Part shown: one piece after another, positions 30,307 to 58,899 of the stretch
Position numbering within the stretch: the stretch's first letter is position 1
Layout of the letters: each line of letters begins with the position of its first letter
Source of the DNA: Macrostomum lignano
Lineage: Eukaryota
Assembly: GCA_002269645.1 (NCBI GenBank)
Contig: NIVC01001672.1
Coordinates: forward strand, 1-64,000
Reading direction: 5' to 3'
DNA length: 64,000 nucleotides
The notes under the pieces: model-generated
Told to the model about the DNA's origin: nothing
Database searches by the model: none
Seen by the model: only the letters and a program-made list of their open reading frames with translations
Program-made: the position numbers and the translations under genes

Positions 30307-31183
30307 CCGCTGTGTATTGGAAGGGGGTCGGTCGCTGTGTATTGGAGGGTTGATTTAGATTTCGTAACTATTTTGTTAACTTTAACTGAGACTGATACCG
30401 ACTGACGGAGAAATAGATTAGCGCCGCAGGCACTCATTTTAGCGCCGCAGGCACTCATACGTCATCAATTGGTTCAATTAACCCTAACCCTAACCAGTGA
30501 TTTCAATTTCAAATTCTTAGTATATTAGATTGGCGGAGATAATATTGTTAGATGTCGTTTAACAGAAGGAATTTTGATAGAATTCAGTTTCATGAAGAGA
30601 ATTTGATAAAGTTCTGTTTCGCGGAGACGATTTGGAAGATAGGATTCCGGTCATGGGATTCAGCTGATGGATTTCAGGGAATGGAATTCTGGCGATGGGA
30701 GTTCTAACCCCTTCTCCTCCAACAGAGGAGTTGGCCTCGTTGATCTATCAGATTGATTGCCACGTTGCGCCAGTTCGGAAGTGATGTTGCAGTCGCGATT
30801 ACGCCTTTTACTTGAACGAGCTATACATAATGATGATATTTCGGTTACATTTTGATCGACAGTTTAGGGCTTTCTATGGATTCATGAGTAGGGTAATATA
30901 TAAATGTTTAAACTCAACGAATGCGTAGAAGAGTTTTCAAAATAATTTAACATAAGATAAAATAAGCGTTCCAGTAATGCGTACAGCAATGCCGAGTTGA
31001 GCTGTGAGTTCCTGTCTAGATGTAAATTCATAGTTGAGAGTTCGGTTGTGAGGTTAAAAAAGAAATTAAGAATGCAATACAAGACAATGTGATTGTCTTT
31101 GCACAGAAATTAGTTTTTAAAATTATACCATGATTTTTACAAGAATTTCTTATTGAAGAGTTATGAGTGATTAAAGCATGGAT

Positions 31184-38377: not shown

Positions 38378-39479
38378 ATGGCTAGCACTCGATTTGAAAG
38401 CTTGACTGAGGCTGAGGCTGAGGCCTTGATTTGCGGCACTGTACCTTCAAACACCATGAAGAAGTGCGAGTGGATGGTGTCTATTTTCAAGGAGTGGTAC
38501 GCATTCAGGAAGCAAGAATGGGCGACAAATGGAGGATCATCTCTCATGATAATCAAGGACATGGATGAGTTTGAAAGGGTGACTTGAACTTTCTAATGAA
38601 GTTATTCATCCTGGAGGTCCGAAGAAAAAGAAACAAGAGATACTGGGCTGGTCCGCTGAAAGACTTTTTTCCATGCTACAGTACCACATGCGCAACGCAT
38701 ACCATAAGGAGTGGTGTCTCTGGACAGATGTTGAGTTCGTCGACCGTCGAAAAGTTGACGCAGCCATGAAACTATCAACTGCTAACGGTAATGGCGTCGG
38801 GCTCAAGAAGGCTGAACCGGTGTCGACGAATATCGAAGACGACTGTGTTCGGAAGAAGGATGTGTTCGGTTCCGAGCACCCAGACCAGCTATTGCGCACG
38901 ATTATTTGGCAAATCAAAAAACACTTCGGCCTTCGAGGAGGCAGTGAACTGCGTGAATTAGAATTTGAACGCGAAATCAACCTGGACGGGGCTGGTGTTG
39001 ACGAGTGCATCGTGTATACGGAGTCAAAAAGAACGAAAACCAATCAGGACGGCTTGAAGGGCGGACAGAAACATTCAAAAGTTGTTAACGCATTCTACTC
39101 TACGGACTGTGAGAAATGTGTAGTCTGCATGTACCGGAAATACGTCTCGGTTCGTCCCGCCAAGTGCGCATCTGCTCTGTTTATATCCGCCAATAAAAAC
39201 TGGACTCCAACCAATGGAAAGGCTTTGTACACAGTACATCCGGTTGGCAAAAATATGCTTGCCAACCTCGCGAAGGACATCGTTTCTGAAGTTCGTCCGA
39301 ACAGCACCACACGGTATACAAACCAGAGCCTTCGCAAAGCGTGTGCAACACAGTTGCATGAGGCGGGCATTGAGCGAGGAGATATCGCCCGAGTCACCGG
39401 CCACTCTACTGCCAAGGCGTTAAGAACAGTATATTACCCAGTCAGCTACTCGGCAGAAGATTCAGATCGCCATTATTAG
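38378..39479 (+). pseudogene. Crypton-type tyrosine recombinase (DUF3504/KCTD1-ZMYM-related) with two frameshifts near 38584 and 38673
   Basis: PSNTMKKCEW..FKEW, LFILEVRRK, FGLRGGSELR (catalytic R), KTNQ (K), TNQSLR, TGH...VY (catalytic Y). Confidence 0.85.
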
Positions 39480-40679
39480 CGGGGACATCAAGGATGTCGC
39501 CACTGTCGTCAGGAGTGGAAACAGTGTGACGGTGTCCGAGGCCGAGATGGAGATTACTATCGATTCGTGCCGAGCGCCTGCTCCTAAGCGCATGGTGATC
39601 GAGGCCAACGGGAAGAACAACATTTTGAAGATTACTTTCACCTAGATTCGTCGTGAGGATGCCATGCGTGTACAATAACTATATATCATTCTTGACAATA
39701 TTAAATGATTCAAAGCTGTTCAAGTTATGCACGTTATTAACTGTATTTCCCGCACGTTTATGTTTCTATCGTAAAATTGCCGTTTATACGCTCCGGGCGA
39801 GCGGGAAATAAATCATTTATTGCCCGGGGCAAATAAATGAAGTGCTTTAAGACATAGACTGCGTTGGCGGGCAAATGGAGAATACTAAATGGTATTCATT
39901 CCCGCTTGGGCATTGGCCATAGACTATAGAAACTCCATGCTTTGCCTTGGCCCTTGATCCTATTCTCAACACCAATGAATAGAATCATGGATTGCTCGTC
40001 CGTCTTCAATTTGGGGGTACAATTTTGCTCCCCGAAACCCCCGTTTGTATTGATTGGCTACTAAATATTTCTTAGTAGTCTAAGACAAAGACAGCAATCC
40101 AAGCCAAAATAAATAAATAAATGAAGTAAATAAATTTGCACACAGTACACAGTACAATCCCTCCGTTCTCCACTTATAACTATACTAAGATGGCCACCGA
40201 AAAGCGTCGGCCTAATTTTAGCCTGCGAGAGGGGTCGAGGTCCTAGCTCGTATTGGAGCACGCAAGAGACAGTCCGGCACTGAGAGCAAAGCATAGAGAT
40301 GCAGGCACAAACTCTCAAAAGAAGAAGCTTCTGGAAACGATCGCCACAGTGGTTTCTGCTGTTAGAGTATCGAGGCGCTCTCCAGAAGAATGTCGGAAAA
40401 AATTGCGTCATTGTGTAGCGAAACAAAGTCTCGGGTGGCCACAGTGTTCAATGAGCAAAGACGCACAGGCGGCGGCGTTTCAACAGCTGAACCACTGACG
40501 CAACAGGATCAAGCAGTCCTAGGCTTTCTACCCGACGTCGCATAGAAGGGTGCGGAAGGTGGATTTGATTCGTCGGCAGAAATGTCATCTGTGACTGACA
40601 AGACATCCACGATCGTCGGTATGACAAAATCAGACCACAATAGGTCGGCTAACAGTTCGGCTGCCAGTTCGACTACTAG

Positions 40680-41255
40680 TGAAGTGATCTTAATTTAAGC
40701 ATGTTATGCCCAATGTTATTTTTTAGTCTAATGCGAACTTCAGAAGGTTTTTCTATCAGGAAAGTACAGCACATGCTTGTGCACCAGTAAAGATCCTATT
40801 GCGTGAAGCGAACACCAATGAAATGCGTTATAGAAATCATATATATACTAGCGTTCAGTGAGAATGAAGCCTCTCTCCAGTTTTTCCCGGTTCTCGGCTC
40901 TCCGCCTCTTTGCCTCCTCAACTGCTCCGCTAGCTTGCCCCAACAATCGGGCCTGAACTCTAATATCCCGATTTAACAGAGATAAATCCGGACAAACGTC
41001 AATTCGTGCAACAATATCGATAAGTAGCCTGTGGCTCCATTTTCACTGAATTGCTTAACAAATTTGCGTAATTGCGTGATCAATATCCTATTAGGAATTG
41101 CTACTAACATTGATTAGTAATAAACATCTTGTTGAAGGTTAGAGATCGAGAGAAACAAATCGAACCTCCGACTTATTTGATTCAACAGCAACATCAACGA
41201 TCATAGTCATCGTCAGAGGGGCACACCCCCGCAACACATTATTCTAAAACATTTG
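40680..41255 (+). repeat. 5' LTR (576 bp)
   Basis: Starts TGAAGTG; TATA-like tract ~40820, AATAAA ~41119; differs from the 3' LTR by four single-C indels only. Confidence 0.95.
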
Positions 41256-41257
41256 AC

Positions 41258-41267
41258 TGGCTCCCCG
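41258..41267 (+). promoter_or_regulatory. Primer-binding site, probably tRNA-Asp
   Basis: TGGCTCCCCG is complementary to the 3' end (...CGGGGAGCCA) of metazoan tRNA-Asp(GUC). Confidence 0.75.
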
Positions 41268-43203
41268 ACCTTGTTTCTCTCCGTAATTTCCTTCAACATG
41301 CCCGGCTTCAATATGCTGGGGTGAACACCTCCGTGGAGCTGGCTATGAGCTAGTGTTGGCATCTTAGAAAGGGTCAGTAAAAAATATAAAAATTAAAAAA
41401 TTACAAAATATAAAAACCAATACAATTTGCAAAACTACAAAAATACTACGTGTATGATTCTCCCAAGCTGTAGAATCGTAGAAAAGATTAGTGTTATTTA
41501 ATGTTCTTAAATTTACAACCTCTAATCGCTCTCCCGCTTCGGAGAACCAGCAGCGAACCAGTCCTCAAACCGGTTCCGATGGGAATCCACCCATTCCCAC
41601 TATTTACGCCCTTCTGATATACTTTCTCCGAGTACTTTGCTCGCCTCACCTCAAAGAACGTCAAGTTCACCTTGCTCTTTCTCCACAATCTCACTCTGTT
41701 CTATAAATATCCTGCCTGGGCGACAAATCCCAACCAGGCAACCAGCATTGTCTCAATCCTTTTTCTATTTTTAGCCTCGCAAAACCAGTTCTCGTCCGGA
41801 GAATTCCGCCTTTACTCCGGCTGGTTCACAGCAGATCTGCATCGTTTTTCGTCTTCTGGAAATTCTAGTTCCATTCCGGTCTGCATCAGTTCACAAACCA
41901 GCCTCAACTGGCCTCAGTTCGCCTCACTCAGTTGGCTAAAACGCCCTATCGGCTCCGCGCCTCACTCAGTTGGCTCAACGCCCTACCACAATTCAGCTGT
42001 GATCCGCTCCAGCTCTTCTCTCCGCTGCAATTCTCATCCCCAGGGATAGAAAGTGAGGGAGAATGATTCTGTCACACCGGTGCGACACTCTCAGTACTCT
42101 CAATCTTCTCTTACCCCAGGGAATTCATTTTTGTTTCAATGGCTGCTCCCCCTCCTTGGGCTTTCCCATCAGAAACCCCCATTGTTCTCTAATGGGAATA
42201 ATTTCCGTCCCAAGCTCTTATTTATACTACAATCCGCTTTCCTTCTCCGCAAAGTACAACCTACCACCCTCGTCTACCCATACACCAGCCCTTTAGCCTT
42301 CGCAGTCGTTCAAAATTTCTCAAAACAAAATAAAAATTACGCTGTGATTGCTACCCACCCTCTCCTATTCCCTATTCCTTGTTTCTCAATTTCAAGCAGC
42401 CACATCATTTCTTCATGATTAGCAGCGATAAGCCCGCGGCAATTTGTCCTATACACAGGACCTCTACACCTGCCTTCAGGTAATTATAATTCTATTTTAG
42501 TCGGCCGAATCTATTTGTCAATTACACACTTAAACCCAGGACTGGTGCTTGGTTCATGCTCATCGTGTTCCAAGTTTGAAGTTTTGGCACGCCACTCATA
42601 CGCCTCTGCCTTGCTTCCACAGACTTCTGCAGAGTCTCTTTCGTTCCTTTTACAACAAATTCAAATCGCGTACTCAACACGCATCGCCACATCCGCTGGC
42701 ATCTTAACCACAACTCACCAGCTGAGTTTTCAACGCCAATCCGTTCAATCTCAAAGGCATCAATCAACGCGCACATTGCCGCCTCCGCTGAATCTTCTAC
42801 CGAAATCTGTTCAAATTCTAATCAAACTCAATCCAAGGATGAGGCTCAGCTTTTCTTGCTGCTTCTATGAAATATTTTAACCGCTCCACCGCTGAGCTAT
42901 ATTATAATTAGTACAGGCGCATCAGCCGACTCTACTCAGTTCTACTTTATACAACTGTTCAACACTTGCTCAAAATTGCTCTAAACTCACACTTTTGATA
43001 AATGATACTACAGCTACCGAAGCTCTACATATTGAAAATTTGCTTATATAAAACAAAAAACTGACCCTGGATAGATGACCGCAAATCACGCTCAGATGCT
43101 ATTGCTTCACGCTATTTCAAATCTTTATTGTTACAAAATTGCGATTATTTTCAACTCTTAATTGCAAGACCACTCGAAGTAAACCCATTCCACAGATCAT
43201 TGC

Positions 43204-46200
43204 ATGAAATTGCGTTCTGGTACCCAACTCGGACAACAACAACAACAAGAGCCGCCTGCAATATCCACACCAAATTCTGCCAGTGTCGCTGAAAATCCTA
43301 TTGATATTTCTGGTGATTCTACTGGCTTTTGTGGACATTCTACTGGTATTGGTGGACATTCTACTGGCATTGGAGGACACCATACTGACGACACCCAACA
43401 GCAACTAACACAAACAGCTACCCCAGCTACATTTTGCCATCTACCTGGCCTCCATCAAGAAAACACTGCCATCGGCACCAGAGACGAAGAACAACCTTCT
43501 GAGTTGTACGAGCAGCAACAAGAACAACATCCTCCACAGCCACTTCTGCAACCTGATCATTTGAATCAAAATAACGCCAATATCCAGGAAACTGAGAGCA
43601 ACGTTACAATGGCAGAAGCACTAATGCAACAATTTATCAATGCTGTGCGAGATCAACAAAGACCACACGCTGCAATCCCAGCTAGTACCATCAACGAGAT
43701 CCGCGAAGGTCTCAAGGAGATAGATCAACTTCATGATTTTGCCTCTTTCATCATGGAGTATGATCTATCAGCGAGAACTTTTAATCTAGATGAAAACTCA
43801 AAGCTTCGCATCTTTCCTCGGCTCCTCAACGATCTCCTAAAGATCGAATATGCCGCTCTACCCGCCGAGACACAAAATGACTACACCCAATTAGTTCGGT
43901 CTCTGTCCGACAGAATAGCGGTACTCACTCTCGGATCCACTTCGGCACTACATCACATCGCCAACCGCCGACAACTCCCGGGTGAGCCATTCATCCAGTA
44001 CTACACGGACATTCGCCGCAAACTTCGTGCCATATACCCAGAAGTCTCGCCACTACCACCCGTGGATGGCGAAAATGCACCGGCTAACCAAGCGGTCATT
44101 GACCAACGAAATGAAATGTTTAACAAAACATTGATCGGCCATATACTAAGTGGCGCTCTACCTCACCTTCGCGTTGAACTACTGCGAAACCCGCTGAATA
44201 CCGAACAACAGCTGCTCAACCAGGCCATTCGCCTTGAACAAATACAGCAGTCTTCACAATTAACGGCCCCAAACAACGTTCCGGCCGATATAGAAAAACG
44301 CCTTGCTGCCTTAGAATGTGGAACCATCAAGCCCAAGCCAATAGTAGCGGCTATTCAAGGCGCTAGCAATACTAGAGAACCACCAACGTGCAAATTCTGC
44401 CACAGGATTGGACACACAACAGATCGATGCTACCAGGATCCTCGAAATGCACGCCAACAAACTGCCAATGCTAGACAACCAAGACAGGCTGACTCTAAGT
44501 GGACACGCAATCAACCGATTCAAGACCGGTACAGACGAGGCTCCGATGATCCTCGCAGCCGAGACACAGGCTCTCCAGCCAAATACTGCCACTTTCACAA
44601 CTCGGACACCCATGATACCGAAGAATGTCGTACCCTACACGATATTAAACAGGGGAGAACAACAAACAATAACCCACAGCGGTATAATCTAGGCCGGCGC
44701 GTACAATTTCAGCGCAACCCCACTCAACGATATCAACGGGAACGCCACTCTGATTCACCAAACCACGGACGTTCCAGAACACCGTCACCGCGCCCTCCTG
44801 CAGCCGGTGTAAACTCAATTCAGGTTGTCTCGAACGACCCCATGCCACAACTGCCGACTATGGACTCGCCTCAACAAATTGTGCCACCGAACAGCACACC
44901 CAGTGCTCCACAGCGTCTCACTGAGGTTCCTGTGGCAAAATCAACGGCTACTCCAACCTATGCTTTGGACAGACCAATTGAGTACAAGTTCCATGGCTCG
45001 ACCAGGCAGTTTAAGAAATTAATCCGCGACAGTCCATCTACACTGTCAGTCATCCACGTTCAACCGTACACTACGCTATCAGCCGCTCAACCAAAGCTAA
45101 GAAAAGATATGCTACGTGCCCAGCGACAGCAGGTACACGTAAAAAGACCACTGTCTCAGCAGAAAGGACGTCGACTAACTGGTCTAACGACGCTTCTCGT
45201 GACACTCATCTGGCTATCGCTATTCCCGACGGTGCAGACAACACCACTGCCATCGAATCCTAAGCAACATCCACTCTACGTGGACACACCAATGCTCTGT
45301 CCATTAGATGGACCCGTGCGCATCTTCAAGATTCCTCAGCAGATCAGATGCGAACAGTTCACGTCGTCACAGGACGTTACGACACCAGTGCACTTACAGC
45401 TCTACTCTACTAACCTGGAGCAAACCAGAACACCAGTCAGCTTATGCTTCCGTGAGGAAATCTCGGTTAATTGCCTCCCAATGAGCCAGGTTCTGCGCTC
45501 TCTCCGTGATGCGTACGTAACCTTACGCCCACTTACAGTCGCCGCACAAGATTGCCAACATTGGACCGAATCATATAACTCACCTGATGGTCAGCTTCAA
45601 CTGGTTGCCACCACTGGAAACTACAAAATCTCTCGCTCCAATACAGGAACCTCCTTCCTCGAAGACTGTTACCATCGCAAGGCACGAACTCAAATAGTTT
45701 CAACACTCATACAAGGGATAATAGCTTTCGCCTCTCCTAGCAAACCAATGGAATCGTTAGCCTTCTCCATGGCACACTGTAGCTATTCATCTCAAGGCTG
45801 CATTATTGAGACAACCTTTGACAACATGAAACGCTATAACCTACCGACAACTCTCCTTCAAAACGCATGGGACACTCTCGACCCACCGGCGACACAACAA
45901 CTGACCGTTACTGGCCAACGAAAACTGACACTTACGTGGAAAACAACAAGCCGTTCGGACTGTATACTCACGCCATTCCGACAAATTCGAGGTAACATAC
46001 ACTCGGGATTCTTCATTAACGAAGAACAGACATTGGCTTTGACCTTTAAATTGCCGCTTCAACCCTTCCGCCTTACCTGCTCAATTGGAACGAAACGACT
46101 ATATGTTTCCGAACAAGAACTGTACGTTGAAGTGCTCGACAACAGAGAAGAAGACTTCTTAAAGTCAATCGCGATTGTGCAATCTACAGCTGATGACACC

Positions 46201-49200
46201 ACGAGCAACACAACACGCTCTGTCAAAGCCGCGGATGCTTTAACAGCTGACAGCAGCTCATCTTCTCGACAGAGCCGTTCACTACCTGACTTATTGGCTA
46301 CCACAGAACAACCGTCAACCACACCGATTCCGACGACAGTTCAAGCTCCAACTATTACGTCTCTACCCTCACAGCAGACGCTTGATACAGCTTCACCTAC
46401 ATCCGAGCCTACTGTCACTACCACTACAATTAAAAAATCTACTACCACACCTCTAAATCTGGAAATTACAACTCCACCAACTACGACAATAGCGACTAGT
46501 ACAGTTCAAACACCCACAACAACGATGTCGCTTAGAAAACCTCAACACACTACATCTCTTCAACTTAAGTCTACAACTCTACCAACGACAGTAGCCACAA
46601 CTACAGTTACGTCGTATAGTCCGCTAACTACGAAAACGACGACATCTACCGGTATTACCACCGAACAACTAACTCCTGGACCTATGTCTACAACACCTAC
46701 TACCATACTGGAACCTGATCCTCTTAATATACCATACCTACACCGCGACCAACCACCAATGCTGGAACATCAGGACAGAATCCGTCGCGCGATTCCACCT
46801 CCAGACAAAACAGTCAACATCACCAACGCTGAACTCAAGCTATCAGAAAACCTCGTTTCGGCACAGCTTCTCTCCAGTCAACTACAAGGACTTCAATCGA
46901 AGACTCTACTCGATCTCAAGAAACTACACACTCAACTGACGACTACGCAGTGCAAGATGTACGCTTTGAATCTTCGCTATAGTCGCAACCTATACTATAC
47001 CAATCCGACACTAGCTGCGCGTCAATTATTCGCTGACAAATTCATTTATGCGCACTCCATCGCTGGCTACATCTTTGTTCACCAATGTAAGCCACTAAGT
47101 CAGTTCCAGTTCGTTCAACCGCGATACTCACGAGACGAATGCTACACAAGACCACCGATACAATTTCAACTCCACAATAAGTCTGTTCTCGGATTCCTCG
47201 ATACAACGACATCGATCATCTCAACAGCAAGACCACCACTAATATCCTGCCGTTACCTACGAGACTACTATCTTCCAAAGGGTGAATTCATCTACAAAGC
47301 CACAGCCAACTTCAGCTCCTTTAGTCCGATAGAAGCACAAAATAGATCCGACGAAACCTACCTCCTACAGTCCTTATACTCCGACATTAGACAGAGTATC
47401 TTCACGCCACTTGGAGACGTCAACTACAGCGCTTTACGATCACCAGTAACAATAACTGACATGATGGAAAGTTTCATCCAAACACGTGATTTTCTAATCA
47501 CTGTCTTTAAACTAAACAACGCTACTGGACGTCTCCACAAGGATGAATTCAAGCAGTTTGGCCTAAACGCCTTGGAAGCTTACCAGAATCTTTGGACATC
47601 TACCTTCTTCAGTTGGGAAAGATTCCAACAGAATCATATGGAGAAGTTTCTGTTCAGTTCTGCTGTAATTGTCTACGCTGCACTACTAATTTTCCTTTGC
47701 AACATTGGTCGAATCTGCGTTGCCAACACACTAACTTATGGTCGAACACACCGCCTTATGGTAATGCGAACGACCGACCCATCACCGCAACAAAACCGGA
47801 GCCCACAGCGACTTCCTACTACCTCCGACCACGTGTCGTTAGTACCATTAGTACTTACTTCGCCCTCTAGGAGAAACACAAAGGCGACAGCCCCATCAGC
47901 TCCACCTATGGAACTCGAAGAACGACAGCCAGCTATACCGTCTACTTCTTCACGGACAGATTCAAGACTCTACCCGACACTTCAACACTGGCCGGTTGCC
48001 TACAACACCGTCTTGAAACATCTTACGATGCGAACCCTCATCACGCTCTGGTGCACAAGCCCAAGAATGACCAAATGCAAGTGCACCGCGCTGATTGATA
48101 GTGGCGCCTCTATCTCTTGCGTTTCACCTACCTTCGCACAGAAACTACAGGCTGACATTTTACCCTGTAAAATACGCGTTCAATGTGCAGGAGGACAACT
48201 TCTTAACGTAACTAAACAGGCTAAATTTAGTATGATCATCGGATCATCAAATCGGAAAATCACAGCTTACATATTGGAGGCTATGCCACCCGATTATGAT
48301 CTAATTCTCGGTGTCGAAACCTTTAAATCCCTTGGCATACCACTGTCCATTGACTACGCCAAGTCAGAAGCACAAATCGATGGCACTTCGTTTCCCATAT
48401 TGAATACTTACACAGCAACTGAGGTCGCTGAAGTCTACTTGCCAAAGCAGACTCACATACCCGCTCAATCTACCACCTGGATACAGGCGAATATCGACAC
48501 GACCTATCCAAAGCGCCAGCCTGTCCTATTCATACCAAAGGATCATACTATTCAACGCTATAAGCTCTTAATCGCAAGCTGCTTGACGCTTACAGATGAA
48601 ACGGGTAATTCGATCCTCATACAGATCGCTAACCCTTCACTACAGCCAGTAACACTCTATGCTCAAACACGATTAGGCAGTCTGTCCGATCCCGCGGAAT
48701 ATACACCTGTTACTTCAAAACCTACAGCAACAGTCAATACCATCTCTACCTCGCACGCACGACCTGAGACCGACCGCCAGCTAATTGAACAACAAACACG
48801 GCCTAACAATTCGCATCTGACACCCGAACAAGCTACGAGACTGTGCGACCTACTTTTAGAGTACCGAGATACGCTGGCTCTGTTACCTACGGATATGGGA
48901 TGCACTACTCAATATACCGCCACAATTAACGTTCAACCACATACGCATCCAATTACATCGCGACCTTTTCCGATTGCACATGGTCTTCAAGAGCGTTTTG
49001 ACCAACTGATCGAGAATTTCATCCACAAAGGAATACTCAGCCCTAGCGAGTCGGAATACTCAAGCCCATGTCTACTGGTCGAAAAGAAGACACTTGATGA
49101 ACAAGGACGCCGCCAATTGCGTCTTGTCGTTGACTTTCGCCGTCTCAACCGAATTCTAACAACACCAAGCATACGCCCGCCACGTATACCGGACCTCCTA

Positions 49201-51762
49201 CACCGCCTACGCGACGCCAAACTTTATTCGTTGTGCGACCTTGCCGACGCGTTTTACCAAGTCCGACTAGACCCAGACAGCGCCAAATATACCGCCTTCA
49301 TCGCACCTAATGGCCTCCTTTTTCAGTTTAATCGCTTGCCACAGGGTCTGGCCGCATCTCCCAGCCTGATGTGTCGTCTAGTCGCTCTACTCACAGCAGA
49401 TTCACCTAATCTTATCGCCTACCTGGACGATGTACTCCTAATCGCAAAGGACTTTAATGGCATGCTGGGTGAACTCAGACATTTCTTGGCGAAACTCCGC
49501 CATCACGGTCTTCGTATCTCGCTTAGAAAATGCACCTTTGCAAAGAACGAAGTACAGTATCTAGGCTTTCAAGTGTCCGAACATGGAATCCGACCGGCAC
49601 CAGCGCTTGTCGAAAAAATTAAGAACTTCCCGGAACCTAAGACACCTAAGCAACTGCAGTCCTTCCTCGGACTTGCCAACTTTTATCGCTCGCATGTACA
49701 AGGATACTCTACGATTGTGACACCATTGCTTCGTGCTCTCAAAGACGCTCTGGCTACAAAAAGTTTGAAATGGACTACTATCACACAGACGGCCTTTGAC
49801 AACATCCGAAAGATTCTGTCAACTGATATTATACTAGTACATCCTGATCCTCGAAAGCCCTACGTGCTTCATACGGATGCCTCTGACTACTCTCTTGGTG
49901 CAGTCCTCTCTCAACACGATTCGCGTGGACATCTGCAACCCGTCGCTTACATCTCTAAAACTTTGACTCCGACGGAACAACGTTATCCTGCCATTGAGAG
50001 AGAAGCCTATGCTATCTATTGGGCGATTCGGAAGCTCCATGTTTTCCTATACGCCTCACACCTACCATTTACAGTGTTCACGGATCACCAACCGTTGCAA
50101 TCTCTGTTCACTGACAAACAGCCTCTCTCGAAACGACTGCAAAAGTGGATTCTACATCTACAGGATTACCAATTTTCGATCCACTATATTAAAGGCCGCT
50201 CAAACGCTGTAGCCGACTGCCTGTCCCGTATTCCTAGTGTGAATACTTTACATCCCATCCCAGCCTTTGACAACTTGCACGAAGCAGTAAACCAAGACCC
50301 ATTCTGTGCGACAGTGATAGCCACTCTACAGAACCAAAAAGACGACGTACTAACATCCATGTACAAGAACTTATCGAAAACAGAACAAAAACATCTGACG
50401 AAACATCTACACCACTTCTACTACACCAACGACACACTCTACTACGATCCATTGGAAGGTGACTCTCGTAGTCCTAACTCGTCGACACCACGTCTGGTGA
50501 TCCCAACCGCCTACAGAGACGCTCTCCTTCAGGAATGCCATTCCTCTCCATTTGGAGGACACCTTGGTCTTCAGAAAACCTTGTCCCGACTCAGCAAATT
50601 CTACTATTGGCCCAATTGCCACGCAGACGTGACAAGCTTCGTTAACAAATGCGAGATTTGTCAAAAAGCCAAATCAGGACCTCGACTGCGTTCAGAACAG
50701 AAAGCAATGAAATTCCGCAGTGTCTTCTCACACCTGGCTATTGATCTTGTAGGACCGTTACCACCGGCTCATTACATGCGAGATGTGTACAAGTACATCT
50801 TGACAGCTCAGTGTGGTGTTAGCAAGTTTCTGTTCACGATACCACTGGCTGATACAACCACGTCTACTATTTGCAACCATTTGTTTCGACATGTCTTCGC
50901 GATAGCCGGACTTCCGGCCTGTCTGATTTCTGATAATGGACCACAGTTCATTTCCAAGGAGTTCCGCGAGTACATGGACACAATGGGAATCCGACTGATC
51001 TACACATCAGTCTATCAACCATCCAGCAATTTCGTAGAACGTGCCCACCGAAACCTCAAACAGACACTAACTACCTTTGTGCACGACAAGCCCGATCACT
51101 GGATCGAATATTTGCCAGCAGTGACTCTTGCGTTGAACACCGCAGCCCACACTGCCATGAAGGAATCGCCATTCTACCTGTTCTACGCCCGTGACTTCCT
51201 GGCACCCAGCACAAGAATCCTCGAAAATCAAATATCGATCTACACCGAGGAAATCCAACCAATCAGCTTGACCTGCTCAGCGATCACATTGGCCAGAGAA
51301 ATTGCTCTCCATCACCTACACTCTACAGCCGATCAACGGGCCCAGAAACAGAACGAAGAAAAAGCCCCTAATGCTCAAAAGCTCACCATAGGCTCCCGCT
51401 GTTACTTAGACATATCTGCTACTAAGCCGACAAAGTTCTCTAATCCGTTCCGAGGACCGATGCGAATTCTAAAATGGCTGAGCCCACAGAATGCGCTAAT
51501 CCAGGATATTAATAAGCTGACAGAGCCACCATTCGTAGTCCATGCCTCCAAGCTAAAACGTTCCCCTTTTCAACCACAAGAGGAACTCAATCTGCCGAAC
51601 TTCACATCATCGATACCACAGACTCACTTCGACCACCACCCGCCACTGGCACAGCATCACGCTACTCAGACTGACGTCGTGGATGAGCCTGACACTCGTG
51701 ATCAGCACGGACTAGAACCTATTCCAGCTGTGCGATATCATCTGCGCTCACGGGATGTGTGA
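43204..51762 (+). CDS. Gag-Env-Pro-RT-RNaseH-IN polyprotein (2852 aa)
   Basis: CCHC knuckle 44389-44430 and CHHC-like 44587-44628; signal-like hydrophobic stretch 45175-45240; gB-like motifs 46858-47170; TM 47647-47709; protease DSG 48097; RT YLDD 49420; RNaseH HTDAS/TDH/ADCLSR; IN HHCC, DLVGP, SDNG, VERAHR and GPY/F-like FRGPM. Confidence 0.96.
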   Translation: MKLRSGTQLGQQQQQEPPAISTPNSASVAENPIDISGDSTGFCGHSTGIGGHSTGIGGHHTDDTQQQLTQTATPATFCHLPGLHQENTAIGTRDEEQPSELYEQQQEQHPPQPLLQPDHLNQNNANIQETESNVTMAEALMQQFINAVRDQQRPHAAIPASTINEIREGLKEIDQLHDFASFIMEYDLSARTFNLDENSKLRIFPRLLNDLLKIEYAALPAETQNDYTQLVRSLSDRIAVLTLGSTSALHHIANRRQLPGEPFIQYYTDIRRKLRAIYPEVSPLPPVDGENAPANQAVIDQRNEMFNKTLIGHILSGALPHLRVELLRNPLNTEQQLLNQAIRLEQIQQSSQLTAPNNVPADIEKRLAALECGTIKPKPIVAAIQGASNTREPPTCKFCHRIGHTTDRCYQDPRNARQQTANARQPRQADSKWTRNQPIQDRYRRGSDDPRSRDTGSPAKYCHFHNSDTHDTEECRTLHDIKQGRTTNNNPQRYNLGRRVQFQRNPTQRYQRERHSDSPNHGRSRTPSPRPPAAGVNSIQVVSNDPMPQLPTMDSPQQIVPPNSTPSAPQRLTEVPVAKSTATPTYALDRPIEYKFHGSTRQFKKLIRDSPSTLSVIHVQPYTTLSAAQPKLRKDMLRAQRQQVHVKRPLSQQKGRRLTGLTTLLVTLIWLSLFPTVQTTPLPSNPKQHPLYVDTPMLCPLDGPVRIFKIPQQIRCEQFTSSQDVTTPVHLQLYSTNLEQTRTPVSLCFREEISVNCLPMSQVLRSLRDAYVTLRPLTVAAQDCQHWTESYNSPDGQLQLVATTGNYKISRSNTGTSFLEDCYHRKARTQIVSTLIQGIIAFASPSKPMESLAFSMAHCSYSSQGCIIETTFDNMKRYNLPTTLLQNAWDTLDPPATQQLTVTGQRKLTLTWKTTSRSDCILTPFRQIRGNIHSGFFINEEQTLALTFKLPLQPFRLTCSIGTKRLYVSEQELYVEVLDNREEDFLKSIAIVQSTADDTTSNTTRSVKAADALTADSSSSSRQSRSLPDLLATTEQPSTTPIPTTVQAPTITSLPSQQTLDTASPTSEPTVTTTTIKKSTTTPLNLEITTPPTTTIATSTVQTPTTTMSLRKPQHTTSLQLKSTTLPTTVATTTVTSYSPLTTKTTTSTGITTEQLTPGPMSTTPTTILEPDPLNIPYLHRDQPPMLEHQDRIRRAIPPPDKTVNITNAELKLSENLVSAQLLSSQLQGLQSKTLLDLKKLHTQLTTTQCKMYALNLRYSRNLYYTNPTLAARQLFADKFIYAHSIAGYIFVHQCKPLSQFQFVQPRYSRDECYTRPPIQFQLHNKSVLGFLDTTTSIISTARPPLISCRYLRDYYLPKGEFIYKATANFSSFSPIEAQNRSDETYLLQSLYSDIRQSIFTPLGDVNYSALRSPVTITDMMESFIQTRDFLITVFKLNNATGRLHKDEFKQFGLNALEAYQNLWTSTFFSWERFQQNHMEKFLFSSAVIVYAALLIFLCNIGRICVANTLTYGRTHRLMVMRTTDPSPQQNRSPQRLPTTSDHVSLVPLVLTSPSRRNTKATAPSAPPMELEERQPAIPSTSSRTDSRLYPTLQHWPVAYNTVLKHLTMRTLITLWCTSPRMTKCKCTALIDSGASISCVSPTFAQKLQADILPCKIRVQCAGGQLLNVTKQAKFSMIIGSSNRKITAYILEAMPPDYDLILGVETFKSLGIPLSIDYAKSEAQIDGTSFPILNTYTATEVAEVYLPKQTHIPAQSTTWIQANIDTTYPKRQPVLFIPKDHTIQRYKLLIASCLTLTDETGNSILIQIANPSLQPVTLYAQTRLGSLSDPAEYTPVTSKPTATVNTISTSHARPETDRQLIEQQTRPNNSHLTPEQATRLCDLLLEYRDTLALLPTDMGCTTQYTATINVQPHTHPITSRPFPIAHGLQERFDQLIENFIHKGILSPSESEYSSPCLLVEKKTLDEQGRRQLRLVVDFRRLNRILTTPSIRPPRIPDLLHRLRDAKLYSLCDLADAFYQVRLDPDSAKYTAFIAPNGLLFQFNRLPQGLAASPSLMCRLVALLTADSPNLIAYLDDVLLIAKDFNGMLGELRHFLAKLRHHGLRISLRKCTFAKNEVQYLGFQVSEHGIRPAPALVEKIKNFPEPKTPKQLQSFLGLANFYRSHVQGYSTIVTPLLRALKDALATKSLKWTTITQTAFDNIRKILSTDIILVHPDPRKPYVLHTDASDYSLGAVLSQHDSRGHLQPVAYISKTLTPTEQRYPAIEREAYAIYWAIRKLHVFLYASHLPFTVFTDHQPLQSLFTDKQPLSKRLQKWILHLQDYQFSIHYIKGRSNAVADCLSRIPSVNTLHPIPAFDNLHEAVNQDPFCATVIATLQNQKDDVLTSMYKNLSKTEQKHLTKHLHHFYYTNDTLYYDPLEGDSRSPNSSTPRLVIPTAYRDALLQECHSSPFGGHLGLQKTLSRLSKFYYWPNCHADVTSFVNKCEICQKAKSGPRLRSEQKAMKFRSVFSHLAIDLVGPLPPAHYMRDVYKYILTAQCGVSKFLFTIPLADTTTSTICNHLFRHVFAIAGLPACLISDNGPQFISKEFREYMDTMGIRLIYTSVYQPSSNFVERAHRNLKQTLTTFVHDKPDHWIEYLPAVTLALNTAAHTAMKESPFYLFYARDFLAPSTRILENQISIYTEEIQPISLTCSAITLAREIALHHLHSTADQRAQKQNEEKAPNAQKLTIGSRCYLDISATKPTKFSNPFRGPMRILKWLSPQNALIQDINKLTEPPFVVHASKLKRSPFQPQEELNLPNFTSSIPQTHFDHHPPLAQHHATQTDVVDEPDTRDQHGLEPIPAVRYHLRSRDV

Positions 51763-53454
51763 ATCAATACGCGGCAGTTGATTATCGATGGACAGTTGAT
51801 TATCGATACGTTTTGAAAATTATATTCGTTTATATTATTTCTATTAGTTTTATAATTATATATTATATCTTTCTTCCTCTTAAATCGCAATTTATCATTT
51901 TCCGCTTCAACTTATCTATCTTCGTTAGATAATTTCCTTGACAATACGCTACTCTTTTGCTACTCACAGTAGAAATGTCAGTTCTCAACACTCTTATCAA
52001 AATTATTGTTTTATTCTGTTGTCGTCAAACGCTTTAGCCCTACATTTTATTTGCTTACCTTTAATTACTATCACTCACCCTTGAAAAAATTTATCAGAAC
52101 CATCTTCTCTACTCTTGCTCACCCACGTGAATTCAATGATCTTTTCTTTCGTCACCTCATAATCCCTATTCGGTCTTTTGTAAGACCACGCGTTACCCGG
52201 ATCTACACAGCCGTCCCGCTCTACACTGCAATCCGGCTCTACACGCTGCCCTGACCGAAATTCAGCTTCGACTCTGTTCAACACCAACCCGGCCCACTGC
52301 CCAGCCCTATCTACTACTTGAAACAACCTGCTATGCTCCGAATTAACAGACTACATGCCTGCTACCGACAACTACGGCTAACTACGAACTACGACACCGG
52401 CCTGACTACAGAAACCCTACTGGCTGCAACAAAACTAAGACGAACAGCACTATCTGACACGTGGTGGCCTTGAAAAAGGCCGTTTTGACGTTGGCGCCCA
52501 AAGGACGCAGAAGACTTGGCAGACCAACTGTGCAGTTACACCGCAGTCTCCTGGACACGGGCAGTTGCAGCGGGCCGCAATGGTGCGCGACAACAGCGGC
52601 TGCAGCCGCCAAAGCAGCAACAACACTTGCAGCAACAACAGCAGGCTACAAACGCCGCCACTAGCAGTAACAGCAGCAGCAGCATGATGGCGACGACCGC
52701 GCTGATGGAAATGAAATACGCGTGACGCCCCTGGAGAATACCAGCCGCGATCTCTGTAATTTGCTCTCTTCCCAAAGACAGACCAGCCATTGACTAATCT
52801 AACTTGAATGATAAACGAGCTATATCGAAACTTAAAAACAATTGCGGACAAAACCTGAACTAGAAAATTCCCTCCCTATCGTTTTTTATCTTATTTATAC
52901 CACGCGACTCCATCCTTTCCTTTGAATTAGCTTCAGTGTACACTCACGCGCTCTACGAACACCCACCCCAAGCCAATAATCTCTTCGACCCACGTACAAT
53001 GTACATTCCACACCCTTGATTAAAAATAGCTTTCTTTTTCACCTTGCGTCCCAGTCGTTTCTTTATAATCTCAATTTCGTTTGACTGTCCTTTACTCAAT
53101 TTTATTTATACCTCTAACTTTACTTGTTGCCTATTTTCGTCCATCTGAAAATTCTCTGTTTTATCTGTCTTTGTCTGTTTTAGCAAACCCTTTAATAAGC
53201 CACTTTTGAAACTTATTTTATCCTCCTTGCTATTCCTCTGTTCATTTAACTTTGGTTTCAACAGCTTTACTCTAATATTTAATACCCTTTCCTAAGCCAT
53301 GCTCTATGCTTATTTTCACCATTTTACTCACCACTTTATCCACTTTCTCTAGCCTACACCTTGCGCCTCGTATGCAAGTAGCATTAGTTACAACTTCACT
53401 AATAATCCAACACCTGTTTTCTTTTGCTTATGCCGCTCGGTGGGCCTTCGCTTT

Positions 53455-53469
53455 GTGAAATAAGGGCAA
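53455..53469 (+). promoter_or_regulatory. Polypurine tract
   Basis: GTGAAATAAGGGCAA directly abuts the 3' LTR TG. Confidence 0.7.
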
Positions 53470-54041
53470 TGAAGTGATCTTAATTTAAGCATGTTATGCC
53501 CAATGTTATTTTTTAGTCTAATGCGAACTTCAGAAGGTTTTTCTATCAGGAAAGTACAGCACATGCTTGTGCACCAGTAAAGATCCTATTGCGTGAAGCG
53601 AACACCAATGAAATGCGTTATAGAAATCATATATATACTAGCGTTCAGTGAGAATGAAGCCTCTCTCCAGTTTTTCCCGGTTCTCGGCTCTCCGCCTCTT
53701 TGCCTCCTCAACTGCTCGCTAGCTTGCCCCAACAATCGGGCTGAACTCTAATATCCGATTTAACAGAGATAAATCGGACAAACGTCAATTCGTGCAACAA
53801 TATCGATAAGTAGCCTGTGGCTCCATTTTCACTGAATTGCTTAACAAATTTGCGTAATTGCGTGATCAATATCCTATTAGGAATTGCTACTAACATTGAT
53901 TAGTAATAAACATCTTGTTGAAGGTTAGAGATCGAGAGAAACAAATCGAACCTCCGACTTATTTGATTCAACAGCAACATCAACGATCATAGTCATCGTC
54001 AGAGGGGCACACCCCCGCAACACATTATTCTAAAACATTTG
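53470..54041 (+). repeat. 3' LTR (572 bp)
   Basis: Copy of 40680-41255. Confidence 0.95.
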
Positions 54042-56054
54042 ACTAGCCCGACGGAAGACAGTATCAACAAGACAACGGAGGGAAATGGCGACAACGAAAC
54101 ATCAACAAAAGTGAAGCCCACAGCAGTCATTTTCAACGGTCGCAAGCGCCATGTCGAAGACAAAGACGTTTCGACGCTCTGAGTATGCAGCGGGAAATGG
54201 TGGAGCTGCAGAAGGAGCCTGTCCACCTGGGCATACACCTGTTGCTAAACGCTTTATTAAGCGTTGTAAGTTCTCATTATGAGAACTGAAAAGTTTAATC
54301 ATCCGTTGACTGCTGTGTTGACAACCAACAGACATTGCAAGGGTTTCTTTATTCAGTGTTCGCTAATAGTTTAGTACTAACAGTTCATTACTAAGTACTA
54401 ACATCTTAATAGCAGCCTGATACCAGTTTTTCTCGTTTTACATACCATAATAAACAATAAAAACGATATTCGATTGTGAGCGTGAATGTCTCGATATTCT
54501 TTTCGAACTAGTCATTACGACCTAAAAATAGAAAGCAACCACTCGATCACGCTCCACAGCACCGGCGACATCTTGTTCTCCACCTTCAAATCCATCGTCG
54601 ACGATGTCCTCCACGCTCATCTCCATCACGTCAGGAACACGAATGCGACGGGCTTTGTTATGCAGGAAAATGCAGACGACAACGACCCGAGCCGAAAGAG
54701 CGGGGTCGAATTGCAAAGGCCCAGTGACTTTGTTAGACAAACAAAGGAACCAAGACTTAAGAATCCCAAATGTCCTCTCTATTGCGACACGCGTCTTTCG
54801 CAGAGCCTGATTGTATGCTCTAATTGACAGAGCCGGGGTACACATACGGCGTGAGCAGGTATGGTTTCAACGCGTAGCCACTATCACCAAGGAGCCACTT
54901 GTCACCAAACTCGCCATTTAAAATTCGTTGTTTTAGATCCGACTGATTGAAAATGAACGAATCGTTTGCTGAACCAGGAAAGCGGACAACAGCGTCCACT
55001 ATTTTTAAATCGCTGTCACACACACACTGTACGTTAATCGAGTGGTATCCTTTGCGGTTCGCGAACACATTTTCGTTTTCACTCGGAGACTTTATGGAAA
55101 TGTGGGTCCCATTAATGCAACCGAGTACCTTAGGGAACCCGGCGATGGCAGCGAACTGAACTGACACCGTCTCTCTCTGTAGCTCCGAACCGAAGCTAAT
55201 ATCCTCTCGAACTGTACTCACCAAGCAGTCGACAACTTCACGACAACTTCACGAACAATGCGACTAACAGATGGTCGAGAAACCCCAAATGACGCCTGCC
55301 GATTGCTAACCAGACATCCTGTTGCTAAGTAATTTACATGTATTGTGACACACAGCTTTACAACGGTGGGTATAGCCCGATTCCTGTGCGTTCTGGGCTC
55401 CAGATTTTGTCCCATGGTGTCCAGCAATTCCACGATAGCGCCTCTTGGAAACGGTATCGTTTCAGTAACTCGTCTGCTAAGGTGAGGGGATCGCTCCTAA
55501 AAAGTCACAGAAGACACCCCACTGTAGCGGTAGGCCTACTAACAAAAACACAGGGTAGCCCTATTGTTGTCATTAGTTGGTAATGAGGGTTATTATGTCA
55601 AAAATACTTAGTGACCAACAGAGTTCTGGCGATAAATTGGAGTAGTAGTGGATCAATTTTTGTGCTCGTATCTCCAGAAGACTCAGCAAACAAAGGAGTC
55701 ACTAAATAAAGCTTTATAAGAATCTTCACTATATAGCCACATTCTACCGTATTTTGCAACACGGACCTTACACTTTAACATGTTGCCTTTCGATAAACAT
55801 CAGCAGTTTCAGCAGTCCTACCAATGAACCGTTTTCGGAATCGAAATTACTTACGACTCCTGCGCAGGTTTAGGACTTTCTTCCCTGGCTAGTGAAGATT
55901 CACCTATGTTTTCCAAAAAACATCTGGAATTGGATAAGTTTTTTACCACAGAGGCAAACTCACTGACTACAAGGTAAAACCTATCTAAGTAAATTATTCA
56001 TGGATCGGCCTCCAAGTTTTGTAGTTTTCCGTCCCGAGTATTGAGTAGTCCCTG

Positions 56055-57000: not shown

Positions 57001-57049
57001 ACGTGATACTGCAACTCCATCATCGAGGCTTTGCTACAGGAGGGCAGTG

Positions 57050-57678
57050 CGGAAAGACGAGTAACGAGTGCTTACCAGCCTCAGACGAATGGACAAACTG
57101 AGAGGCTAAACCAAACGTGCCTCAGCCTGCTTCGTAAGGCTTGCAACTCCCCAACTGACATTAACTGGGAACGGCACCTGGACGCAATCCAACTGGCTTA
57201 CAACAGCAGGCGCAATTCGACGACTCTGGCTTCGCCTTTCAGTGCTGTTTTTGGCTTTAAGCCTCTGCTTGGAAGCGATGCGGCGGCTGCTCTCGGCCAG
57301 CCTGCGTCGTCTCCAGCATCAGTGCAACGACGATGGCTTGTGGAAAAAGAGCAGCAGCGCGCAGCTGTGGCCTCCAGGCTGGCGGACAGAATCAAAATTT
57401 CCCAACAGCGAATGCGGGAACGTCACGCGAGGATTGCCAAGGAAGTGGAGACAATCAACCCTGGCATGCTTGTTAGACTTCGCAATTACCTTCGCGACGA
57501 TCGAAAAAGCGGAAAACTTCTGTCCATTTGGAGCGACTTGGACCTAGTGTGGAGATGCGTGGGACTAAGCGTCTACCAGTTGACTGGCCTAAAGCGCTGT
57601 GTCAATGGAGTACATCTGAAGCGATGCAGGACGCCGGCCGAACCTTTTGGTCGAATTGCTTCCCAAATATTTTGGTGA
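57050..57678 (+). mobile_element. Gypsy-type integrase C-terminal fragment (LTR element or Ginger-like)
   Basis: TSAYQPQTNGQTERLNQT, WERHLDAIQLAYNS, SPFSAVFG, GKLLSIW...VYQL...VNGVHLKR; absent from copy A. Confidence 0.75.
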
Positions 57679-58899
57679 CTTTAACTAATTGATTAAAGTC
57701 TTGCTGATATCAATTAGCTATCTAAGGCTGATCGTGCTTCTTAGAAGCTGTATTTTCTGTTAGTTAAAAATAAAAACAACAATTGTCTTGGAATTCTTCC
57801 AATTTGGTACTTATTGCTTCTTTGCTTTGAAAATATTAAACTGACAAATTGTTCATTGATCCGGACTTCACAATCAGGATATCGCAAAGAAAACCTTAGT
57901 TTTTTGGCCAGATACTTCGTATTTCAATCTGCTTGTGACTTCCGTGGGGAGAGAATGCAAGTACTCCGGAGAACGCAAAGCAGCTTGAGAAATCTGGACC
58001 GGATACTTTAAGATGCTTGGAATATCTGGGGGAGATCAGAAAGCCCTTGCAATGTCCGGTTGGAGATCAGAAAGTACTTGCACTGTCTGGGCGGATAACA
58101 CAAGACACGGATATCCGAAAGCATATCACCGGGATCTCGTCGTCAAGGACCACTAAAAGTTACCTGTACAATGGTATAACTTCTAGTGGTCATTGGACCT
58201 CGTCTTGGACCTAGCCAACAATTAAAGCATCTTAAAGCAAAGCATAAATGAGTGTATGTGAGGGTGTTTACATATACGTATAATGAATTCGTCTTGTTTA
58301 TTTATTTAATAGGTCTAAAGCATCGCTGTCTCTTGATCCATCCATATCCACTTTCGAGGTGCTGGTTGTGGCCACACACAGCGACTCCTGTATCGATATA
58401 CTAAAATGAATCCATATGAATTTGTACAACAGGTACAGGGCATAAGAATACATACATAAGTAGGCTTATGACAGAGATTCAAACTGTGCACGTCATGCAT
58501 AAAAAACTATTGATATAAAAAATGTTTTGTGAATTATCACTTCTCTTGCGCTAAAACTGTACAATAATGTATAGTTTGGCGATAATTTATTCGTTCAGCG
58601 ATATGATTACATAAAATAATTTAATATCTGTTCAAGTGAGCGCTCCAGTATGCGTTTCATTGTGAGTTGAATCGTAAGAATTCAGGTGTAAATTCGAAGT
58701 TGTGAGTGTGGAAGAAAATCGAGTATAAGATTACAATAGTTGCGATGGAGCCTAAGAAAATACTCGTATTTGGGCATTCAATAAACATTTAATTAGCGCA
58801 TGCAAGAAACAGTGAAGGAACACCGAGGTTTGTAAGCAGAGGCAGAGGAAAACGGACTACTCGTATTCATAGTAGCTATCAGCATGGATTCAACTCTGT

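Follow-up and report, generated by a model that had tools for sequence, protein, structure and literature searches.

Ty3/Gypsy errantiviruses with the gene order GAG-ENV-POL and an envelope protein (Env) of the herpes simplex virus glycoprotein B (HSV/gB) type have been described from Nematoda, Bryozoa and Platyhelminthes, the flatworm Macrostomum lignano included (Chary and Hayashi, eLife 2026, PMC13524379). According to that paper, these elements are not one clade, the mechanism of transmission or cell entry outside Drosophila is unknown, and M. lignano contributes one catalogued element as well as 93 pol and 51 env open reading frames (ORFs) in ENV-POL order; the nematode endogenous retroviruses (NERVs) of Sacco et al. 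2022 (J Gen Virol 103:1739) are cited there as having a flipped env/pol order. Here we analyse a 64,000-nt stretch of M. lignano DNA (hereafter the window; contig NIVC01001672.1, positions 1 to 64,000), in which an element at 40680-54042 carries one long ORF between near-identical long terminal repeats (LTRs). We conclude, with near certainty, that the element is intact, inserted recently and exists in several copies, and that it belongs to the GAG-ENV-POL type of Ty3/Gypsy elements already described, its Env being a class III fusogen. Like the errantiviruses of PMC13524379, it is a multi-copy element of Platyhelminthes with a Ty3/gypsy Pol and a gB-type Env between gag and pol, and with an ectodomain flanked by a signal or transmembrane (TM) segment on one side and a TM on the other. 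The catalogued M. lignano element, unlike this one, has 863-bp LTRs and another primer site and thus represents a different family; none of the loci checked contained its primer motif. A sequence-only reading of the window had taken the gag-env-pol plan to be possibly new, and had named beforehand an existing catalogue of that plan as the finding that would remove the novelty. This claim fails, because GAG-ENV-POL elements with a gB-type Env are already published and catalogued, M. lignano included (PMC13524379); in our literature search the wording "gag-env-pol" was confined to that paper and its preprint.

The structural claims of the same reading were borne out. The 2852-aa ORF is free of stops, and a sequence check together with Pfam found all landmarks in place: the zinc knuckles (aa 396-409 and 462-475), the KGRR patch, the hydrophobic segments, and the DSG and YLDD motifs. 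An identical 2852-aa protein is present in databases as a hypothetical protein of M. lignano. A Pfam scan of the whole protein placed the protease (PR) at aa 1626-1708, reverse transcriptase (RT) at 1969-2124, RNase H at 2190-2322 and integrase (IN) at 2433-2606, in Ty3/Gypsy order and with motifs intact, and gave no match across aa 1-1625; a separate scan produced the sub-cut-off matches in the C-terminal part of Env described below. Gag of the window copy has no Pfam capsid match, and Env homologues elsewhere carry Retrotrans_gag or Ty3_capsid at Gag's position. Besides the PR-RT-RNase H-IN order, the LTRs with their target-site duplication and a tRNA primer site support the Ty3/Gypsy identity (for the tRNA-Asp match, the mature CCA end and the discriminator boundary were deduced). 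The 5' and 3' LTRs differ by four 1-nt gaps and zero substitutions, and end in TG...GA, not in the usual (though non-universal) TG...CA, in the window as well as in those copies and solo LTRs that have a readable end. Hydropathy and conservation assign the signal and the TM to two hydrophobic 19-mers, at aa 659-677 and 1483-1501 respectively, and both segments are kept in all five families described below and in distant homologues. The ectodomain has 14 Cys and 7 N-glycosylation sequons. When programmed frameshifting was looked for, no slippery heptamer common to the families was found.

Eight full copies match the Env region at ~100%, in addition to one with a large internal deletion. Identity among the eight over the ORF region is 99.5-100%, exceeding the 98% criterion of the gB-type errantivirus group; their LTR pairs show 0-4 substitutions, and their flanks differ, save for two copies that resemble one locus. 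Additional LTR-only matches are present, as a lower bound. Near-identical LTRs, an intact ORF and this identity between copies agree with the young age proposed earlier. The frame is unbroken (2859-2866 codons) in 4/8 full copies, and the remaining four carry 1-nt indels in gag, tail or pol and none in the ectodomain or TM; some of these indels may be assembly errors, because several coincide with substitution positions in other copies. Of 24 sequencing runs, 20 contain the stretch; none of these is listed as RNA, though their RNA status is a guess. Contigs of all four runs compared, one of which is possibly the window's own source, have zero indels in the ORF, and one contig spans 41232-52754. 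As half of the copies are unbroken and the contigs of 4/4 runs are free of indels there, an assembly accident is an improbable source of the open frame. Such contigs drop rare forms and give no reading of strand, level or infrequent splicing. The ratio of LTR to internal depth (first bin), at ~0.6 for X2, 4 for X1, 12 for X4 and 15 for X18, was discounted as evidence of expression.

Thirteen diverged loci, picked by Env match, yielded four further families, B-E (RT identity 33-85%), the window's own being family A. Env lies upstream of PR in 13/13 of these loci, and a Gag or knuckle match lies upstream of Env in 11/13; the four families keep the order seen in the window. A one-off insertion is refuted by the eight full copies and the four diverged families, all of which retain the Env segment; the Env Cys pattern is also kept across families. 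Further to that, the homologues P0026, P0030, P0050, P0044 and P0086 are single proteins that combine Env with Gag and PR or with PR/RT. As separate observations, two Env-bearing polyproteins (P0050 and P0045) have more than one protease-like domain, the LTRs of family C end in CA, unlike the TG...GA of family A, and apparent Asp or similar primer sites starting with GGT/GGC are found 1-2 bases past the LTR in families A, C and D.

On the strength of the structural model, we identify Env as a class III fusogen similar to herpesvirus gB and nyamivirus G. The best fold matches of the AlphaFold model in the PDB are herpesvirus gB (E 3e-10), and the best match in a viral library is Midway nyavirus G (E 3e-14). 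A comparison that did not use Foldseek also returned gB (Z 9.2, at a root-mean-square deviation (rmsd) of 40 because domains are misplaced), and the best-fitting match after trimming was to MHV68 gB, with Z 7.2 and an rmsd of 4.3 over 214 residues. The model shows the PH-like domains I/II, long central helix and beta-rich domain IV typical of the class. In the ESM Atlas, class III glycoprotein clusters appeared at ≤0.86, which we treat as a lead only. The C-terminal part matches PF24664 (Monjiviricetes_fusion, E 4e-4) and PF00606 (Glycoprotein_B, E 0.009), and many of the 36 Env homologues scanned (50 were found) match the same two families, several of them with Gag and/or protease in the chain. 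Two points weigh against the assignment: both Pfam matches fall below the curated cut-off, and the model is of low confidence on the whole (mean pLDDT 48.7, TM-scores ~0.2) and uneven, reaching mostly 55-90 over domains I/II. Env of the mucin-less family D, folded from a single sequence, had a pLDDT of 34; the Env sequence had 0 matches among solved structures, and a profile search among long proteins recovered the window's own protein only, which is weak evidence. Env is under purifying selection: the ratio of nonsynonymous to synonymous substitution rates (dN/dS) is 0.10-0.12 for a family C pair, vs 0.11 for RT, and 0.09-0.25 for a family D pair, the comparison of families A and B being saturated in most domains.

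An RT-RNase H tree of 57 rows was drawn from 120 RT-bearing proteins: it keeps those that bear Env (except a duplicate of the window's protein), those with a name and, of the rest, those with the best scores; it has no Bel/Pao, copia or retrovirus outgroup, and its deep nodes are weak. Two metagenomic proteins join families A-C (support 1.0), and family D is next to these (0.90). The remaining env-before-RT proteins, one from a nematode among them, are placed apart with weak deep support, in agreement with the non-monophyly of GAG-ENV-POL elements reported in PMC13524379. A well-supported group (P0065, P0070, P0072, P0078 and P0082) carries a related Env in frame downstream of integrase, and therefore both orders, Gag-Env-Pol and Gag-Pol-Env, exist as single ORFs. 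The best matches include Cer1 and other Ty3/Gypsy-type polyproteins. A close mucin-less relative with ~60% RT identity (P0008 and P0056) is filed under the name of a bacterial metagenome-assembled genome (MAG), and its source is probably eukaryotic DNA in a bacterial MAG bin.

Beyond the sequence-only reading lie the Env class, a mucin-like insert, late-domain-like motifs and an antisense ORF. Residues ~1000-1180 are 40-52% Ser/Thr, Cys-free and mucin-like. In families A-C the loop ahead of the central helix region measures 300-373 aa and has 33-41% Ser/Thr and a basic site on each side, whereas in families D and E the same loop has 88 aa and one basic site. None of the other homologues compared exceeded 38% Ser/Thr per 60-aa segment there (the segment being misplaced in some proteins). 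A Thr-rich mucin insert between furin-like sites thus appears confined to one subclade, A-C. Constraint on the insert is weaker (dN/dS 0.30), and the first furin-like site of family A, RQSR, is a minimal R-X-X-R only, a point against the cleavage scheme proposed below. The insert might be released as a glycopeptide, like p27 of respiratory syncytial virus F, or act as a glycan shield, like that of filovirus GP.

The cytoplasmic tail of Env holds a PSAP and an LYPTL motif, which occur together in 0.04% of shuffles. P[TS]AP, PPxY or YPx[LI] was found within 130 aa ahead of the PR motif in 12/20 env-before-PR proteins, against a shuffle expectation of 1.9, and in 0/70 other RT-bearing proteins; one extra env-before-PR protein was dropped from this count as it has no protease motif. 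PSAP and LYPxL are retroviral late-domain motifs with a role in engaging the endosomal sorting complex required for transport (ESCRT), and by this analogy we infer that the tail motifs may recruit ESCRT. Less favourably, the pattern was widened after families D and E had been seen, 8/20 env-before-PR proteins have no late motif, and 5/12 motif-positive proteins come from related families of one host.

With moderate confidence, we suggest the following mechanism. Genomic RNA would be translated as a single polyprotein, with Gag synthesised in the cytosol. Residues 659-682 would serve as an internal signal, at which signal peptidase frees the Env N-terminus, and the TM would halt transfer, so that PR-RT-RNase H-IN folds in the cytosol attached to the Env tail; an alphavirus-like topology is a reasonable fit to this arrangement. 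Furin-type cleavage would split Env and, in subclade A-C, may excise the O-glycosylated insert. Retroelements normally package and activate Pol through its link to Gag; a signal-cleaved Env that intervenes severs this link, and another route must therefore exist. Pol, unlinked from Gag, could enter particles via the tail of membrane-anchored Env, whose trimers would bring protease units together, and the PSAP and LYPxL motifs beside the protease would recruit ESCRT for budding, after which the protease would cut Gag off the signal stub and detach Pol from Env. The antisense ORF would be expressed from a separate transcript as a small, probably palmitoylated membrane protein, most likely a helper of egress or cell-to-cell transfer.

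Several points count against this scheme. Protein, topology, cleavage and particles are all predictions here, as are the equimolar Gag:Env:Pol output and the infectivity suggested in the sequence-only reading. A nucleocapsid end of Gag that is tied to the membrane is the reverse of retroviral geometry, and a 1:1 ratio of Gag to Pol is far from the usual Gag excess; for both these reasons some unseen regulation is likely. The ratio would be resolved if the one DNA ORF gave rise to several mRNAs, by splicing, trans-splicing or early polyadenylation, with abundant Gag-only or Gag-Pol products, a minor Env-Pol product and proportions other than 1:1:1. M. lignano is reported to trans-splice 38.8% of its genes (PMC5730564), and the single-ORF nematode Ty3/Gypsy element Cer1 yields a spliced mRNA (PMC10309623). 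We nevertheless hold this explanation unlikely: the ORF contains zero sense AATAAA signals, contigs of the four runs bridge the Env borders with no Env-skipping joint listed (rare forms being dropped), and the copy with the internal deletion shows additional bases where its two ends meet, which does not resemble a splice product.

It could also be that the signal is used part-time, a cytosolic Gag-Env-Pol being cut by PR and serving retrotransposition within the cell, and the translocated part alone giving enveloped particles. Such dual topology would keep Pol linked to Gag for packaging and would suit a signal of merely moderate hydrophobicity (1.65 in family A, 1.6-2.3 in the others). However, the TM is strong and conserved, the late-domain-like motifs lie on its Pol side, and an unfolded 800-aa Cys-rich ectodomain would presumably be costly in the cytosol, which makes this rather improbable. 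An Env that does not act in spread at all, either a passenger or a provider of some other service to host or element such as a superinfection block, is hard to reconcile with a constraint equal to that of RT in family C, a Cys pattern kept across families and an ectodomain broken in 0/8 full copies; no particle or infection has been observed, and transmission outside Drosophila is called unknown in PMC13524379, but we consider this reading very improbable. The translocated, Env-tethered Pol thus remains our preferred reading, with the tail of Env as the Pol route to which the late-domain-like motifs point.

The antisense ORF, which standard annotation would miss, lies between pol and the 3' LTR, and its conservation suggests that it is a selected accessory gene. 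It is intact in 8/9 family copies and has a counterpart in all five families (67-92 aa, one copy extended to 116 aa), the 3' regions of which share almost zero DNA similarity. The proteins of families A, B and C align pairwise with E 1e-6 to 1e-9, and that of D is remoter (E 0.007). In the family C pair the antisense frame shows dN/dS 0.11 and zero stops, compared with 0.23-2.39 and 1-10 stops in the other five frames. A strict search rule (TM, basic patch and Cys), drawn up after the ORF had been seen, was satisfied in 7/10 3' regions of families A, B and C and in 0-1/300 shuffles per region. A relaxed rule, applied without a shuffle control, added families D and E, with 5/16 stretches positive, one of them with a second, unrelated match; at least two of the 16 stretches fell short of the region. 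A profile search returned two proteins, both from M. lignano and matching families E and B, and M. lignano is the range in which the ORF was seen. Transcripts underlie the published gene models of M. lignano (PMC5730564), and hence the family E record, if it is one of these models, hints at expression. Of five weak genome matches examined, four (L087-L089 and L091) showed no element domains and no ORF of this kind. In the fifth, L090, a family-B-like ORF is accompanied by the conserved downstream DNA motif, without a pol match in the stretch. RNA folding of that motif in the window (z 0.3) was no better than in shuffles.

Small size, a single TM, a short ectodomain, and a basic patch and Cys right behind the TM are all shared with FAST and sORF2 proteins. 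The N-myristoylation motif MGxxxS/T and a p10-type ectodomain cystine loop are absent from the antisense proteins (that of family B has Gly2 and no Ser/Thr6). As the myristoylation and orientation tests failed, we do not class the ORF as FAST/sORF2, and describe it as akin to a small viral accessory membrane protein that resembles these. Even this must be set against the lack of any match above cut-off to known families and the fact that a TM with Cys and basic residues is a common pattern. The family D protein matched Orthoreo_P10 at E 0.15 only, and the ESM Atlas returned small membrane proteins at 0.90, recognition being below threshold.

A bolder reading is that assembly is inverted: the Env tail, not Gag, would hold the budding signals and import PR-RT-IN, Env trimers would activate PR, and the separately transcribed antisense FAST-like protein would move capsids from cell to cell. 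We regard this as doubtful; if true, it would describe a retroelement with both class III and FAST-like fusogens in a worm capable of transgenesis, for which no case was found in the related literature. Should the antisense ORF prove a fusogen, FAST-like proteins would extend to antisense genes and to Env-bearing elements. A young multi-copy family in a model animal with transgenesis opens the Pol-packaging question to in vivo study. The features are collected in Table 1.

Table 1. Features of the M. lignano element, with positions in the window
Feature	Position	Strand	Remarks
Target-site duplication, 4 bp	40676..40679, repeated 54043-54046		4-bp duplications of other sequence flank other copies and solo LTRs
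5' LTR, 577 bp, TG...GA ends	40680..41256	+	
Primer-binding site, 13 nt	41258..41270	+	complementary to 3' end of host tRNA-Asp(GTC)
Single Gag-Env-Pol ORF, 2852 aa, stop-free	43204..51762	+	
Gag, aa 1-658: capsid-like region, two zinc knuckles, ~180-aa spacer, PSAP aa 566	43204..45177	+	
Internal signal-peptide-like segment, aa 659 to ~682, behind basic patch (KGRR aa 654)	45178..45249	+	hydropathy; counterpart in families B-E and distant homologues; cleavage site inferred
Env N-part: predicted PH-like domains I/II of class III fusogen	45250..46188	+	model pLDDT mostly 55-90 from ~aa 725, lower at N-end; matches gB and rhabdo/thogoto G
Mucin-like insert rich in Thr/Ser, bounded by furin-like sites RQSR (aa 1022) and RIRR (aa 1192)	46267..46788	+	families A-C only, not D-E
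Env C-part: predicted long central helix, domain IV, membrane-proximal region	46789..47649	+	sub-cut-off Pfam matches and structural model
Env transmembrane anchor, aa 1483-1501	47650..47706	+	hydropathy, conservation
Cytoplasmic tail / pre-protease spacer, PSAP aa 1564 and LYPTL aa 1589	47707..48003	+	
Aspartic protease, DSG aa 1632	48079..48327	+	Pfam
Reverse transcriptase (YLDD aa 2073) and RNase H	49108..50169	+	Pfam, motif
Integrase zinc-binding and core domains	50500..51021	+	Pfam
Short DNA motif with small inverted repeat	52461..52481		kept in families A, B, C, just beyond antisense ORF stop
Antisense ORF, 84 aa: ~24-aa N-part, one TM, Cys cluster, basic residues, C-terminal ETAV	52536..52790	-	
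Putative polypurine tract, purine-rich, imperfect	53457..53469	+	adjoins 3' LTR
3' LTR, 573 bp	53470..54042	+	

Within the element, the 5' leader (41258-43203) is a pyrimidine-rich stretch of 1.9 kb; an open frame of 153 codons lies at 42419-42880 and has no Pfam match. A long beta-rich spacer between PR and RT (aa 1731-1900; 48394-48903) is 49% identical to that of family B, and may be comparable to the degenerate dUTPase-like region of some Ty3/Gypsy clades. Family-specific sense ORFs are found 3' of pol, measuring 164-318 aa in family C (L073, L075, L076), 260 aa in family D (L078, L080) and 197 aa in family B (L071); family A has no such ATG sense ORF. Downstream of a family B copy, L083 (G000:C3805:26500-30700) holds a 226-aa ORF, which from its P-loop pattern we take to resemble a deoxynucleoside kinase. 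The element is flanked by two copies of Na+/Pi cotransporter exons (31175-33639 and 58881-61575), 87-93% identical and thus a local duplication. Also in the window are a DUF3504 match with a weak phage-integrase match at 38583-39479 (+), presumably a fragment of a Crypton-type tyrosine recombinase, a fragment at 54522-54845 (-) that we take to resemble the C-terminus of a PIF/Harbinger transposase, and a weak integrase-core match at 57007-57678 (+).

Among known systems, the NERVs reportedly have a single continuous gag-env-pro-pol ORF, extra small ORFs and a nyamivirus-like glycoprotein, a likeness they would share with the window element, whose top viral-library fold match is a nyavirus G. 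They are hosted by nematodes, whereas the window element is hosted by a flatworm, under which the identical protein is filed; P0086, the single named nematode element with Env before RT, falls outside the window's clade, with low deep support. The antisense ORF, tail motifs and mucin insert were not found in the related literature, a comparison that extends to works other than Sacco et al. 2022: the main text of PMC13524379 does not mention antisense, late domain, ESCRT or sORF2, its preprint does not mention mucin or polyprotein, and the word "envelope" is absent from the first sixth, passages and Table S1 of PMC12801592.

The sORF2/FAST-like proteins of MDG1-group LTR elements (bioRxiv 10.1101/2025.03.14.642691) are similar to the antisense ORF in having 63-107 aa, one TM, a short ectodomain and a basic patch behind the TM, and reovirus p10 (PMC12945298) shares with it a membrane-proximal dicysteine. 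However, all 105/105 sORF2 candidates are in sense orientation and were filtered for the N-myristoylation motif, and the elements studied are Env-less, whereas the ORF described here is antisense, has neither MGxxxS/T nor the p10 ectodomain cystine loop, and stands beside a full Env. In plant Retand Ty3/Gypsy elements, too, antisense ORFs occupy the interval from pol to the 3' LTR; these encode long TRP28 or other predicted DNA-binding proteins (PMC11963269), in contrast to the small membrane protein predicted here. Atlas virus (Belpaoviridae; bioRxiv 10.64898/2026.03.22.711591) is, like the window element, an invertebrate element with its whole coding capacity in one polyprotein, Gag-Pol-Env of 2828 aa. 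Its Env comes last and belongs to class II, so that Pol remains joined to Gag, while in the M. lignano element a class III Env would separate the two.

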